A stretch of 64,000 bases of DNA. Origin: Capsulimonadaceae bacterium (GTDB taxonomy: Bacteria; Armatimonadota; Armatimonadia; Armatimonadales; Capsulimonadaceae). The translations under genes were made by a program, and so were the position numbers. The notes below the pieces were generated by a model. That model saw only the letters and a list, made by a program, of their open reading frames with translations. It did no database searches and had not been told where the DNA came from. Of the stretch, positions 1 through 62,136 are shown one piece after another (position 1 is the stretch's first letter; each line of letters begins with the position of its first letter). The stretch covers positions 3,019,205-3,083,204 of the forward strand of contig CBDIDS010000003.1 of assembly GCA_965277885.1 (NCBI GenBank). Direction: 5' to 3'.

Positions 1-1111
1 TTTGCACCTTGCCGATGGTCGGCGGATTCGAGCAGGGGAACTCATCGGAACTGACTTCACGCTGCTGACTGTCGCCAAAGAAGAAATTCGGGCCGTTCCC
101 GCCCGCGCGGAATTTAATGCCGTCGAGCCGGTCTTTGCCATTACAACTGAAAGCGGGCGTAGGATTGTCCGTAACAGTCAGCACCCACTGTGGGCGGCAA
201 ACGGAGTGATGCGCTGGGGCAAAAACTACGATACCGTTCAAGTGCGCGGCTGGACACCGCTGGAAAACATCGCGGCGGGCGATCTGGTCGCCGTTCCTGA
301 AAGCCTGCCGGCCTTCGGTTCGCCCGTGCCGCTGCCGGAAGACGAGATCAAGCTGCTGGCTTATCTCATCGGTGACGGCAGCTTCACCCAGCCTGCGGTC
401 CGCTTCAGCCAGCAGGACAATGTGCAGCTTGCCGAATTCAAAGAGTGCGTCGCGCGGACACGGTGCCGTATGATTCAGCACAACAAGTACGACTGGAGAA
501 TTGTCGGCAAGCGCGGACGTGTTGCCGCCGGACAGGACAGCAACAATGACGTCATGAACCTGCTCCGTCGGCATGGCCTGATGCGGACGCACTCACGCGA
601 CAAGCGTATCCCTCCGGCGATCTTCCAGCTTCCGCGCGAGCAGCTTTGTTTGTTCCTGTCGCGGCTGTTCGCGACCGATGGCTGGGCGTCCTGCGGCCCG
701 GAGCGTCCGGGAAACCGGCTGCCCCGCACGGAGATCGGTTTCTGCTCGGCGTCGGAAGGACTGGTGCGCGACATTCAAGAGCTGCTGCTGAAGCTCGGCA
801 TTGTCTCGCGTCTTTCCGCGAAGGCAAACGTCCATGCCTGGACTTTAGCCCTCCATGTCGCCTCGGAGATCATCAAGTTTTCCGACCAAGTCGGTATCTT
901 CGGCAAAGAAGATGCCGTAGCGCGAGTCCGTCAGGTCGCCGAACGCGCCCTTGCCGTGCGGCCAAACCGAGGGGAATGGCGGCACCGGAACGCGCCGCTG
1001 GGGATGCGCTGGGAAAAAGTCAAGGCTGTCATGCCGGCGGGCATTGAAGCGACGATCGCGATTGAAGTGCCGGATTACCACACGTTCTTGTCTATGTTCT
1101 GGGAACACAAC
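1..1111 (+). other. Intein (Hint splicing domain plus double-motif LAGLIDADG homing endonuclease) inserted in the DnaA Walker-A loop; first few codons outside window
   Basis: Block-B-like [20 protein letters not shown] motifs [11 protein letters not shown] (from nt 353) and LFATDGWAS. Terminal [19 protein letters not shown] (Asn codon 1109-1111) directly followed by Thr of THLVHAIG. Confidence 0.8.
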
Positions 1112-2115
1112 ACGCATTTGGTGCATGCCATCGGGCATCAGATACGCCTCGCGCTGCCGTCGGCGCGGGTGGCGTATGTCAGCGGAGAAATGTTTACGAA
1201 CCATTATGTGGCGGCGATCCGGGACAAGCGGACGGAAGATTTTCGGCGGGCGTACCGGAACGTGGACGTGTGGCTTGTTGACGACATTCAGATGCTGGCG
1301 TCCAAAGAGCAGACCAAAGAAGAGTTCTTTCACACGTTCAATGCCCTGCACCAGATGAACAAGCAGATTGTCTTGACGTCGGACCGCCCCCCGCGCGAGC
1401 TGCGGGCGATGGACGACCGGCTGCGCTCCCGCTTTGAGTGCGGCCTGGTCGCCGACATCACCGCGCCGGAGCTGGAAATGCGTCAGGCCATTCTCCAAAA
1501 GAAGGCTTTGCTGGACGACCTTGCCATTCCCGAAGAAGTCATCGCGTTCATGGCGAACTTGATCCAAAGCAACATTCGGGCATTAGAAGGGGCGCTGATC
1601 AAGCTGATGGCGTATGCGTCGCTGATCCACAGCCCCGTCACCAAGCAGCTCGCCAGCGATGTTCTCAGCGGCTATTATGTCGAGCGGATGGCCCCGCGCG
1701 AGGCGGCATCGGCCCACCCGGAAGACCATGAATTCGCGTTCCAGTCCCCCGAAGCCGCCGCGCGTTCCACCCAGTCGCTCCCGGCCTCCAGCGCAGGCGG
1801 GCCGGGCGTAGACGGCGTGATCGAAGCCGTTGCCCGGCAAATGGGAGTCACGCGCGAGATGATTGTCGCCGGCGGCGGGCGCAGCAACCGGGCGACCCGG
1901 CTGCACGGCGATGCCAATTTCGCCCGCAGGTCGCCATGTACCTCTTGAAAGAGATGGGCGGCGTGCCGCTGACGACGCTTGCGGCAACGTTCGGCCTCAA
2001 GAGCCACACGGCGGTGGTTCATGCCCACGGACGCCTGCAAAAAGAGCTTGACTCCGACCCGCAGATTTTGTCCTTGATCAGCAAGATAAAGCAGGAACTT
2101 GAGCGGGGGAGTTAA
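1..2115 (+). CDS. dnaA: Chromosomal replication initiator DnaA (5' end outside window; interrupted by an intein; last ~60 codons lie in a different frame)
   Basis: After the intein the frame-2 ORF reads THLVHAIG...[12 protein letters not shown]...[10 protein letters not shown]...LRSRFECGL...[10 protein letters not shown] (DnaA AAA+ domain III). Frame 1 from ~1927 reads [33 protein letters not shown]...ELERGS with stop TAA 2113-2115 (DnaA domain IV). Confidence 0.85.
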
Positions 2116-2125
2116 GAGACCTATT

Positions 2126-2186: not shown

Positions 2187-2676
2187 ATGAACGAAGACCT
2201 TGCCTTTCAAGTCAAGCTTTACGCTTCAGGTAGACGCGAGACCGTTCGGGAAAAGGAACTTGCTCATCTACTGCGCCAGGAACCGGAAGAAGATCGGTAC
2301 AAAATCATCCAGGATTGCCTGCAAATCAGCCATCTTCTGGGCCTTCTTTTTGCCCGAAAGTGCCTCTCGTCCCAAGTATTTCAAGGCGATTTTACTCGAA
2401 GGGATTGAAGTTGCTGATGCTCATAGCATCCAATTCTGGCTGAAATGTACGGTTGCTCCTTTAGGCATGAAGCGTGTGCTGCATATATTGGAAGAGGCGG
2501 TCAAGGTCAATCCAAGGGGAGTAGATAAAATTCTTTATCATCTCCCGGCTTACCTTTCTCCAACGGCATCAAGTGCAATGTATCGCATTTACCAGCTCAG
2601 GAAGGCACTGGAAACGCAGTCTAATCTTCCCTTTAGAGAAGACTTTGCGAAGCAATGTGGTAGGTTCCCTATGTGA
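2187..2676 (+). CDS. Hypothetical protein, apparently split across two frames (2187-2408 frame 3, then about 2350-2676 frame 1)
   Basis: Strong SD GAGGAGG 5 nt before ATG 2187. The first ORF looks protein-like to ...ISHLLGLL and the second frame looks protein-like from ...PKYFKAILLEGIEVADAHSIQFWLK. The junction coincides with T5 run 2347-2351. Visibly lower G+C than neighbours. No family recognised. Confidence 0.4.
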
Positions 2677-2804
2677 CATAAGCGATGTGACACTGTGACT
2701 CAATGTGACATAACTTGGGAAATTGTGACACAAGCCGAAACGCGCTGTGACATAACTCGGCTTATGTCACAGTGTCACAATCAGTGTCACAGCGCACTGT
2801 CACA
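2672..2804. repeat. Array of ten 7-bp boxes: six TGTGAC(A/T) on the + strand followed by four TGTCACA (the reverse complement)
   Basis: Boxes at 2672, 2686, 2694, 2704, 2724, 2746 (TGTGACA/T) and 2765, 2773, 2785, 2798 (TGTCACA). The central 11-bp inverted repeat ctgtgacataa/ttatgtcacag (2745-2755 / 2762-2772) marks the orientation switch. Confidence 0.9.
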
Positions 2805-2839
2805 ATTCCCTGTTTTTGCGGGTTGCGGCCTCTGTTTGG

Positions 2840-2985
2840 GGACTCACGCGCACAGCCGCCGCACGGAGTCCGCACACCGATTTTGTCAATCCGCACGCCC
2901 CGCGCAATGAGTCCGCACTGCCGGGCGCACGAAAAATCGGCGTCCCCGCACAGCCGTAACACGTTCGGGCGCACACCGATTCGGG
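2840..2985. repeat. Cluster of about eight (T/G)C(C)GCAC motifs, several as GAGTCCGCAC
   Basis: cgcgcacag, ccgccgcacgg, gagtccgcacacc, aatccgcacgcc, gagtccgcactgc, gggcgcacgaa, tccccgcacagc and gggcgcacacc, read directly within ~145 bp of non-coding DNA. Confidence 0.7.
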
Positions 2986-3013
2986 CCGCGAAACGTCGGC
3001 GAAACAGATTTTT

Positions 3014-3042
3014 GAGTCACACTGAGTCACACGAGAGTCACA
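3014..3042 (+). repeat. Three direct GAGTCACA boxes abutting an AT-rich stretch
   Basis: GAGTCACA at 3014-3021, 3024-3031 and 3035-3042, immediately followed by tctatactactattattacttaagaatttactcttatgtagaattaaaag. Confidence 0.85.
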
Positions 3043-3142
3043 TCTATACTACTATTATTACTTAAGAATTTACTCTTATGTAGAATTAAAAGACTCCGGA
3101 AGGAAGCCGAAATGCAGGCCAAATCTTCATTCAAAGTAAGTT

Positions 3143-4312
3143 ATGCAAGTCACCTCGCTTAAGCTGGACCATTTTCGGAATTACGAGACTCTTGCGATTG
3201 AGCCGGGACCGGGCCTGAACATCTTTGTCGGGCTGAATGCCCAGGGCAAAAGCAACCTGCTCGAAAGCCTGTACCTGCTCGCGACCAGCAAGTCGTCCAG
3301 GGCAGGCAAAGACACGGAGCTGATCCAGTTCGGTGCGGCCCAGACCTGCGTGTCCGCTGATGTCGTTCGGGCCAAGAACAGCGACATCGAGATTGAGCTG
3401 ACCCTGTCGCTGACCGAAAAGAAAGCCGCCCGGATCAACGGCATCAAGCACACGCGGCTCGCCGAAGTGATCGGGCAGCTCAACGCCGTCTTGTTCGACA
3501 GCGGGGATTTAGAGATCATTCGCGGCGAGCCGTCCGTCCGCCGCCGCTTTTTGGATTTGGAAATCTCGCAAACGTCGCCGCGCTATGTGCTGGCCCTGGG
3601 CGCGTACCGCAAGACTTTGGAGCAGCGGAACCGCCTGCTGCGGGACCTGCGCGACGGCCACGCGCCCGCATCGGCCCGGCAGAGCCTGCCGGCGTGGAAC
3701 GAGAGCTTGTCTCAGCACGGAGCCAGGCTGATGGAGCGCCGCCGCCTCTTTTTAGACCGTCTGGCCCAGCTTGCGTCGGAAACGCACGCAATTTTGAGCG
3801 ACGGGCGCGATACGCTGGAAGTCGCTTACCTGCCGTCATTCTCGCTTGGTGACTTGACGGAAGCCGATGCCATTCAGGCCCGCTTTTTGGAAGAACTCAG
3901 CCAAGTGGCCGGCGAAGAAGCCGCGCGGGGAACAACCGTGCGCGGGCCGCAGCGCGACGACATCGCGTTTCTGGTCAACGGCCAGGACTGCCGCTTGTTC
4001 GGCTCGCAGGGGCAGCAGCGGACCGTCGCCCTGTCGCTGAAGCTGGCCGAGCGGCGCCTCATCGAAGAGCTGGTCGGCGAGCCGCCGCTGCTGCTGTTGG
4101 ACGATGTTCTGTCCGACCTCGACGACGCCCGCCGCAGCCTCTTATTTAATCTGACCGCTGAAGCCGGCTCGCAGACGTTTCTGAGCTGCACGAATCTCCG
4201 CGCGTTCTCGCCGGGCGTTTTGGAGCAGGCGACGGTGTATGCGGTCACGGCGGGGAAAGTGGTGAGGACCCACCCCGCCGCAAGCGGCGACCCTCCCGAA
4301 GCGGGAGGGTGA
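3143..4312 (+). CDS. recF: DNA replication and repair protein RecF
   Basis: N-terminal P-loop FVGLNAQGKSNLLESL, signature region GSQGQQRTVALSLKLAE, Walker B LLLLDDVLSDLD. The last ~15 codons run into repeat element A1. Confidence 0.95.
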   Translation: MQVTSLKLDHFRNYETLAIEPGPGLNIFVGLNAQGKSNLLESLYLLATSKSSRAGKDTELIQFGAAQTCVSADVVRAKNSDIEIELTLSLTEKKAARINGIKHTRLAEVIGQLNAVLFDSGDLEIIRGEPSVRRRFLDLEISQTSPRYVLALGAYRKTLEQRNRLLRDLRDGHAPASARQSLPAWNESLSQHGARLMERRRLFLDRLAQLASETHAILSDGRDTLEVAYLPSFSLGDLTEADAIQARFLEELSQVAGEEAARGTTVRGPQRDDIAFLVNGQDCRLFGSQGQQRTVALSLKLAERRLIEELVGEPPLLLLDDVLSDLDDARRSLLFNLTAEAGSQTFLSCTNLRAFSPGVLEQATVYAVTAGKVVRTHPAASGDPPEAGG

Positions 4313-29099: not shown

Positions 29100-29999
29100 G
29101 TGATTGTGTCACAATACGACAAACAAGCAAAGGAAAAGAAGATAAACACACTCACCAATCGTCTGCTCGTTATCGCGCGTCATTTGGCCGATGCTCTGGC
29201 AGGGGTGTCAACAGTTCAAGCGGCTGCCCTCACCGGGTCAGCCGCACTTGGGACCGCCGATGAAAGTTCCGATATTGATCTGATTGTTCTACATACGGCG
29301 CTCCCTGCCCTGCCGGTTCTCAGCGCGGTCCGCGTTCAGGTGAACGGCTCGGAGCGGCTTTATTCTTCGTCGGCGCAGGATACAGCGCGGCTCAAAGAAG
29401 GCTATTTCGTAGACGGCGTTCGGTGCGATCTCAGCCACCTGACACTTGCGGCATTAGAAGACGATTTAGCGCTTGTTTTGGAAGCCTACAGCACAGACGC
29501 GCACGTTCAGTCGCGGGTCGCAGGGGTCCAACACTGCCTGCCGCTGTTCGGCGACAGCCTTGTCCGTGAATTCCAGAACAGAACTGCCCGGTATCCTGCC
29601 GAACTACGGCGAAAGATGGTGGAGACAAACCTCAACTTCCCGCCGTTCTGGGTGCTGACAGAGATGGGCGCGGGGCGCGGCGACCTGCTGTTTTTGTATC
29701 AAACACTGGTAGACGCCGAAAAAGCCATTCTCGGCGTCTTGTGCGGCCTGAACTCGGTGTACCTGCCCGGCGACTTCAAGCGGACCGGCCTGCTCGCCGC
29801 ACAACTCACCCTTGCGCCGGACAACCTCGCGGCGCGGCTCACGGCAGTCTTTCAAGCCGCGCCCAAAGACGCGGCAGAAGAAGTCGGTGCGCTCATCCGG
29901 GAGACATTTGCCCTGGTCGAGCAGCAGATGCCGGAAGTCAGCTTGGCCTGGCCGCGCCGCTGGTTTGACCTGCCGCGCACTGACGCAGAACAGCAGTAA
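29100..29999 (+). CDS. Nucleotidyltransferase-domain protein (KNTase/ANT-like)
   Basis: LTGSAALGTADESSDIDLIVL (G-S...D-x-D). The start is uncertain (GTG 29100 or 29106). The track ORF from 28959 overlaps the GNAT gene. Confidence 0.65.
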   Translation: MIVSQYDKQAKEKKINTLTNRLLVIARHLADALAGVSTVQAAALTGSAALGTADESSDIDLIVLHTALPALPVLSAVRVQVNGSERLYSSSAQDTARLKEGYFVDGVRCDLSHLTLAALEDDLALVLEAYSTDAHVQSRVAGVQHCLPLFGDSLVREFQNRTARYPAELRRKMVETNLNFPPFWVLTEMGAGRGDLLFLYQTLVDAEKAILGVLCGLNSVYLPGDFKRTGLLAAQLTLAPDNLAARLTAVFQAAPKDAAEEVGALIRETFALVEQQMPEVSLAWPRRWFDLPRTDAEQQ

Positions 30000-62058: not shown

Positions 62059-62136
62059 TCCCTCGCCTGCTTTCCGCCCCCCCCGCTGTCACAATACCAC
62101 AAATAGCGAACATTTGTTCTATTTCTTGCGAAACGT

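Follow-up and report, generated by a model that had tools for sequence, protein, structure and literature searches.

A putative chromosomal origin with GTCACA boxes between dnaA and recF in an uncultured Armatimonadota genus

In an uncultured genus of the Armatimonadota, the DNA between dnaA and recF carries a dense array of short repeats, which raises the question of whether this region is the chromosomal replication origin (oriC) and whether the repeats are DnaA boxes. The window, namely the whole stretch of 64,000 nucleotides that was analyzed (G000:C4:3019205-3083204), lies on contig C4 (4.22 Mb) of an assembly of 4.29 Mb in four contigs with a G+C content of 60.6%, and the close relatives of its host in public records are metagenome-assembled genomes of the Capsulimonadaceae / Armatimonadales. 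Based on the arrangement, conservation and sister-family counterparts of the repeats, positions 2672-3099 of the window are interpreted as the chromosomal oriC, with GTCACA boxes that would be bound by DnaA, at a probability of about 0.85.

Boxes, CGCA row and putative unwinding module

The features of the region are as follows.

2672-2755, minus strand: distal array of six leftward boxes (starts 2672, 2686, 2694, 2704, 2724 and 2746), 10-mers TWRWGTCACA on the minus strand
2745-2755 and 2762-2772: perfect 11-bp inverted repeat (CTGTGACATAA / TTATGTCACAG) with a 6-nt spacer, where the box orientation flips
2762-2804, plus strand: distal array of four rightward boxes (starts 2766, 2774, 2786 and 2799)
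2849-2974, plus strand: nine CGCA(C/A) motifs on one strand, 11-bp phased, two of them as GAGTCCGCAC
3012-3042, plus strand: three direct proximal boxes (TTGAGTCACA, CTGAGTCACA and GAGAGTCACA), each with one GANTC site
3043-3099: AT-rich tract of 26-30% G+C, the presumed DNA-unwinding element
3046-3063, minus strand: DnaA-trio, top strand ATA CTA CTA TTA TTA CTT, bottom strand 3'-TAT GAT GAT AAT AAT GAA-5'
3090-3096: AAGACTC, a GANTC site beyond the AT-rich tract, present as AAGA-N-TC in 20 of 20 relatives

The word GTCACA or its complement TGTGAC was found 13 times in 371 bp (2672-3042), against 0.09 copies expected from the genome-wide density of GTCACA (0.254 per kb; Poisson P < 1e-20), and the remaining 63.6 kb of the window hold 14 copies in all. 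When 294 boxes were pooled, the consensus T-(T/A)-(G/A)-(A/T)-GTCACA, i.e. the 10-mer TWRWGTCACA, was obtained. Written as GAGTCACA, the proximal boxes occupy 3014-3021, 3024-3031 and 3035-3042 of the plus strand. A preliminary description of this DNA, made from the letters alone, had reported six leftward, four rightward and three direct boxes, a change of orientation at an inverted repeat of 11 bp, and no good match to the canonical DnaA box. The recount at 2672-3042 returned the same 13 boxes, all with GTCACA; the flip falls between the perfect arms at 2745-2755 and 2762-2772; and neither TTATCCACA at up to one mismatch nor TTWTNCACA was found anywhere between dnaA and recF. The candidate words for DnaA binding include TTGAGTCACA and TTATGTCACA.

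On the top strand, CGCAC starts eight times between the distal and the proximal boxes (2849, 2860, 2871, 2892, 2914, 2926, 2947 and 2970) and CGCAA once (2903), with start-to-start spacings of 11, 11, 21, 11, 11, 12, 21 and 23, and no CGCAC motif was found on the bottom strand of 2849-2974. The eight CGCAC motifs of the preliminary description were recovered, although its statement that several of them read GAGTCCGCAC was slightly generous, as only two copies do. This row is the densest one-strand cluster of the motif on the 4.2-Mb contig and a unique maximum in the genome; its CAC cores fall into one 11-bp register with the CAC cores of the proximal triple, at a phase coherence of 0.87 (other periods, at most 0.47), and the CGCA islands are invariant in 10 nearer relatives. 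By analogy with E. coli, the row is a candidate set of low-affinity DnaA sites that would steer an oligomer toward the proximal boxes, or it may be bound by a second protein instead.

A spacer of 3 bp, TCT (3043-3045), separates the third direct box (end 3042) from the DnaA-trio, whose published consensus is 3'-GAT-5' (PMC6669920, PMC10721633). According to the published search rule for the basal unwinding system (BUS), at least three DnaA-trio motifs (3'-NAN-5') lie within 16 bp of a DnaA box (PMC8287927). The region conforms to this rule, with its 3-bp spacer, six NAN triplets and three co-oriented boxes, which have the same strand and orientation as the canonical boxes of the sister family. 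Runs of at least four YTA triplets occur three times in the genome, and the only one placed after boxes is the run found here. In B. subtilis, proximal boxes need a fixed orientation, whereas distal boxes work at variable distance and in either orientation (PMC6669920); in keeping with this, the proximal triple is fixed within the genus and the distal arrays vary. In the more distant genus members the module reads GAGTCACA-CAC-CTACTACTATTACTA; the C. difficile trio, 5'-CACCTACTACTATTACTACTATGA-3', is a near match to CTACTACTATTACTA and likewise has three boxes just upstream (PMC7561715).

The G+C content falls to 30% at 3025-3074 and to 26% at 3050-3099, and TAAGAAT and CTCTTAT within the tract are kept in relatives. 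The earlier placement of this tract as an unwinding element agrees with its low G+C content (26-30%) and with the three direct boxes and the trio that precede it. The tract probably overlaps the recF promoter region; a sigma-70 promoter scan gave no match in it, and a search for known RNA families returned chance hairpin matches only, far below threshold.

Conservation of the array and the altered DnaA domain IV

The RecF orthologues of 18 same-genus genomes and 19 named public contigs were used to locate the corresponding regions (recF identity of 77-94% in the genus relatives). At every locus with enough sequence (~20 relatives), a GTCAC-type array was found directly upstream of recF, and dnaA directly upstream of the array. 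Conservation of the box pattern, which the preliminary description had named as a check, was thereby observed in all ~20 relatives examined. Two or three direct boxes precede the trio in 20 of 20 relatives, and in an alignment of 10 species the boxes, the triplet run, TAAGAAT and AAGACTC were invariant, while the spacers varied.

Three sister-family genomes carry canonical-type boxes immediately downstream of dnaA, arranged as opposed arrays in the same layout, with 15 copies of TTATCCACA in one genome, 13 of TTTTCCACA in another and GTCCACA in the third. Behind these arrays lie, in order, a spacer region, a single direct box or a pair, CTACTACTACTA... with its CTACTACTA trios, and finally an AT-rich run. 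The sister-family word TGTGGATAAC corresponds to TGTGACATAAC in the window, with GTCACA words in place of CCACA words, and this positional match to the sister-family origins is the strongest argument that the boxes would be DnaA boxes.

The DnaA protein of the genus is altered in the part that reads DNA. Its recognition helix carries KSHTA instead of RDHTT (the sister family and B. subtilis read FGG(R/K)DHTTV), and the basic loop before ARQ is ~6-7 residues longer than in the sister family or B. subtilis. The changed residues are the equivalents of E. coli 423 and 432-436; the published list of base-specific contacts includes several of these positions as well as the basic loop at R399 (PMC5043019). 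Epsilonproteobacterial boxes have T at position 5 (core TTCAC) together with mostly Lys at residue 432, and residue 423 is Leu in H. pylori (PMC5043019); the genus DnaA likewise has Lys at 432 and Leu at 423, with Ser at 433. The GTCACA boxes would be read by a DnaA with a changed recognition helix and an enlarged basic loop.

In an outlying genus member (L038, 5574-6003), GAGTCACG and GTCATCA words stand in place of GTCACA, and the DnaA helix reads GCNNRTAVTHAH (NNRTAV), unlike that of the rest of the genus; this single case is suggestive of a co-change of DnaA and box. In another family (f15; L053, L055, L057 and L058), 9-11 copies of TTTTCAACA boxes were observed downstream of dnaA, together with the helix-5 motif GKNHST. 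A one-to-one code from DnaA residue 433 to the box was considered and rejected, as TTTTCAACA boxes occur with KNHST and RDHAT helices alike.

According to the proposed mechanism, DnaA would occupy the distal boxes of both orientations as well as the proximal direct triple, and ATP-DnaA would extend rightward along the 11-bp-phased CGCA(C/A) row, in register with the proximal boxes. From these boxes the oligomer would pass onto one strand, that of the DnaA-trio, and open the AT-rich tract, as in the BUS of B. subtilis.

Weight of the evidence, rival explanations and surrounding DNA

A number of observations weigh against this interpretation. The boxes differ from TTATCCACA at three to five positions and from TTWTNCACA at two to three, and because of the former distance their assignment to DnaA rests on context; this mismatch lowers the certainty and is no bar to membership in an oriC, since divergent boxes are known in other lineages. 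The Thermotoga 12-mers are another lineage-specific DnaA box. The GC skew of the whole 4.22-Mb contig, in windows of 100 kb and 20 kb, was jagged, with neither a V shape nor a clean switch at the locus, and the cumulative gene orientation from a crude open reading frame (ORF) map was weak, with its minimum near 2.78 Mb, ~250 kb from the locus. A complete relative (G015), sampled at 52 stretches of 20 kb, showed an equally jagged skew, and in neither genome do the curves point to a clear origin. The dnaN gene lies ~650 kb from dnaA and not between dnaA and recF, and the CGCA row is confined to the nearer half of the genus, the distant half carrying extra GTCACA boxes instead. In addition, the other genus of the family (G079; L074, C38:19000-33000), with an SH-type DnaA (GDISHSAISHAH), has no box cluster within 6 kb of dnaA, and a gene directly follows its dnaA; therefore, the origin position is not fixed across the family. 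Pattern matches elsewhere in that genome were considered as its origin and turned out to be coding repeats.

Box-like words were also found at other loci. The only other dense GTCACA cluster of the genome (C4:1575160-1575330; L001 5160-5330) consists of ~10 copies of the 16-bp tandem repeat TCTATAGTCACACGAG, each unit with AGTCACA and a GANTC site, between a gene of the CBS/CorC type and the next gene; as the cluster at C4:1575164 is strain-specific and absent at this site in 11 relatives, its reading as a conserved datA-like DnaA sink was rejected. Four boxes, GTCACA, TGTGACATAA, TGTGACAC and TGTGACACAAG, lie within 45 bp at C4:3262670-3262715, at a distance of 240 kb from the origin and ahead of a PHP-domain gene; they could serve as a promoter under DnaA control or for titration on a small scale. 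The TGTCACAAT copies that the preliminary description had placed in two other promoter regions are present at 29108 and 62088. A 13-bp palindrome, ATTGTGTCACAAT, was observed at 29101-29113, and this site and the one at 62085-62107 have a 17-nt word in common, TGTCACAATAC-ACAAA. Of the genome, 18% is non-coding, and this fraction holds 12 of the 23 TGTCACAAT copies and 13 of the 18 full-consensus boxes located outside the origin. The placement of the full-consensus boxes fits an additional role of DnaA in transcription, which could explain the isolated TGTCACAAT copies; these are also consistent with a separate factor.

Such isolated copies in other intergenic regions, including the palindrome at 29101-29113, would be expected if the GTCACA boxes were operators of another protein, be it a transcription factor or an origin regulator, and DnaA sat at other sites of the region, e.g. 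of the TCCGCA type. The distance of the boxes from the canonical consensus also speaks for this explanation, and TCCGCA is one base off TCCACA. It is nevertheless unlikely: the boxes match the canonical boxes of the sister family in position and orientation, including the pair or triple before the trio, they occur throughout the genus, unlike the CGCA motifs, and the recognition helix of DnaA is changed in the same lineage. A role of the region as a group of DnaA boxes that controls the expression of dnaA or recF or titrates DnaA in the manner of datA, with the origin elsewhere (for example, at ~2.78 Mb of C4), appears very unlikely. The composition curves place no switch at the locus, and the four-box cluster at C4:3262670 stands upstream of an unrelated gene; yet neither titration nor operators need a trio and AT-rich module in fixed orientation, kept in 20 species, and no other conserved box cluster was found in the genome. 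The skew, moreover, is jagged throughout, as has been reported for another member of the phylum, Fimbriimonas, in the paper on the first complete Armatimonadota genome, where no canonical DnaA-box cluster was seen either (PMC4072686).

The direct and inverted short repeats beside an AT-rich tract also resemble iteron origins, and a strain-specific insert with a fragment of a mobile element adjoins the array, but an integrated plasmid or phage replicon is extremely improbable: no Rep gene is present, every relative has dnaA and recF on either side of the array, and the insert is missing from the relatives, which do have the array. The interpretation of the region as an oriC with lineage-specific boxes, put forward in the preliminary description, is supported by synteny, by the sister-family layout, by the trio and by the altered domain IV of DnaA. 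The earlier concern that the same array might recur at many non-origin loci did not materialize, as no comparable conserved cluster was found elsewhere in the genome.

The flanks of the region are made up as follows.

2-2116, plus strand: 3' part of dnaA, with an intein remnant to ~1111, AAA+ domain III, linker and domain IV
2117-2662: strain-specific low-G+C insert of ~550 bp, comprising half a copy of a repeated element and an orphan ORF
3143-4312, plus strand: recF, the right flank of the array, with a Pfam SMC_N match

The first ORF of the window gave Pfam matches to Bac_DnaA and LAGLIDADG_3 (DnaA AAA+ domain and intein). The intein, with its LAGLIDADG endonuclease (window 1-1111), is inserted in the Walker A loop, between Lys and Thr (...EHN / THLVHAIG). 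A frame break of 1 nt was found in dnaA at 1918-1930, near 1920-1928 and just ahead of domain IV, with the shifted-frame domain IV stopping at 2114-2116; the window reads FARRSPCTS-stop there, against an unbroken FARQVAMYLL in all relatives. The break is likely a homopolymer error of the long-read assembly, the alternative being a true disruption of the sole dnaA; one DnaA domain IV was found in the whole genome, at the dnaA of the window.

The distance from the dnaA stop to recF is 1027 nt in the window because of the strain-specific insert, compared with 345-606 nt in the relatives. The insert (2117-2662) is absent from all relatives, in which the box array is present, and it is outside the conserved origin. 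Its first ~70 nt have ~15 copies on the contig, frequently as inverted pairs, and it gave no Pfam or NCBIfam match. The orphan ORF (2187-2408 / 2200-2676) has a good Shine-Dalgarno sequence and a frame break of its own.

GANTC sites, known origins and implications

At the origin, 10 GANTC sites were counted in 500 bp, whereas 0.74 were expected; the distal array contains one and the proximal boxes contain three, and another five fall outside boxes. Genome-wide, the observed/expected ratio of GANTC was 0.41 both here and in a sampled genus relative, compared with 0.86 in a sister-family genome without CcrM, while other palindromes of GANTC-like composition were alike in all three genomes. The sites are not enriched in intergenic DNA overall (19.3% vs 18.4%). 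The AAGA-N-TC word at 3090-3096 varies in its central base (C, G or A) among the 20 relatives, although it is invariant in the 10-species alignment, and its retention despite this variation suggests that GANTC itself is under selection. Upstream of dnaA, to the left of the window (C4:3018260-3018390), four further GANTC sites were observed in ~130 bp, with two to six in most near relatives, an arrangement that recalls the methylation-sensitive dnaA promoter of Caulobacter.

A CcrM homologue was identified at C4:4026396-4027502 as a full-length match to 6PBD (E 2e-134); it scored 511 bits on the NCBIfam CcrM model, under the equivalog cut-off of 830 bits. Its neighbors are housekeeping-like, with no nuclease recognized by eye, which points to an orphan methylase. 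The homologue occurs in 18 of 18 genus genomes (76-93% identity) and at full length in none of 12 sister-family genomes, and its distribution across the phylum is patchy. The genome carries ~nine further N6/N4 methylase genes. In a second CcrM-bearing genome (G063; L054), 20 GANTC sites were counted within 700 nt downstream of dnaA; its dnaA-recF gap combines these with TTTTCAACA boxes and seven TTGAGTC/GACTCAA words. A phylum-wide link between the presence of CcrM and GANTC-rich DNA downstream of dnaA was looked for and not seen, the pattern being limited to this genus and G063.

As many of the boxes and conserved islands include a GANTC site and the genus retains an orphan CcrM-type methylase, the methylation state of GANTC may, as a hypothesis, modulate origin firing. 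It is a tentative and rather doubtful proposal that this methylase, inherited vertically, ties origin firing to GANTC methylation through sites in the boxes (GAGTCACA) and conserved sites to the left and right of the unwinding element; DnaA, or a sequestering factor, would bind differently while the origin is hemimethylated following initiation. Such a coupling may have contributed to the alteration of both the DnaA box and domain IV of the protein. Parallel GANTC patterns have been described in CcrM-bearing Alphaproteobacteria (PMC3973325).

When compared with known systems, the region resembles the origins of B. subtilis and C. difficile (incC / oriC2), which also lie downstream of dnaA and combine co-oriented boxes, CTA/TTA triplets and an AT-rich tract; as there, further boxes in either orientation are found here 230-370 bp upstream (PMC7561715, PMC6669920, PMC8287927). 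The differences are that the boxes here are TWRWGTCACA and not TTATCCACA, that recF and not dnaN lies downstream, that no second box cluster was seen upstream of dnaA, and that a CGCA row occupies the middle of the origin. The epsilonproteobacterial box TCATTCACA (core TTCAC) likewise keeps the (T)CAC(A) core with an altered 5' half and is accompanied by changes in helix 4/5 (PMC5043019). Unlike in the epsilonproteobacteria, box position 4 is G here, giving the 10-bp word TTAT-GT-CACA against TTAT-C-CACA, and the protein differs by Ser at residue 433 and by ~6-7 extra residues in the basic loop. In the model of Leonard and Grimwade for E. coli oriC, low-affinity sites in one orientation, 2 bp apart (11-bp period), reportedly lie between high-affinity boxes; a co-oriented, 11-bp-phased row of candidate weak sites between boxes and toward the unwinding element is found here as well, except that the motif is CGCA(C/A), that the sites are putative DnaA sites, and that they are confined to the nearer subclade of the genus. 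Cori of Caulobacter crescentus shares with this genus the orphan CcrM homologue and a GANTC distribution that is depleted genome-wide and clustered at the origin and before dnaA (PMC3973325); here, however, the phylum is another one and GANTC sites lie inside the presumed DnaA boxes themselves. A search for CtrA-type TTAA-N7-TTAA sites and for GATC returned none.

Origins of the Armatimonadota are essentially unmapped, and predictors keyed to the E. coli box would miss this locus. In the literature searched, no paper on Capsulimonas or Armatimonadota turned up that also dealt with at least two of the topics CcrM, GANTC and replication origin. The locus would be an ordinary kind of element, a chromosomal origin, in a new form with a changed box, a changed DnaA, a conserved unwinding module and a plausible link to methylation. 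For one genus, the analysis yields a concrete candidate origin and the box consensus TWRWGTCACA. Within one order, canonical boxes with an RDHTT DnaA and GTCACA boxes with a KSHTA DnaA form a natural contrast, useful for decoding domain IV. The trio and box layout has been kept despite the changed box sequence, which supports an ancient unwinding module. Finally, with GANTC sites in the boxes and an orphan CcrM homologue that is conserved, a link between methylation and replication outside the Alphaproteobacteria becomes directly testable; if the proposed coupling is true, a once-per-cycle control would have arisen outside that class.

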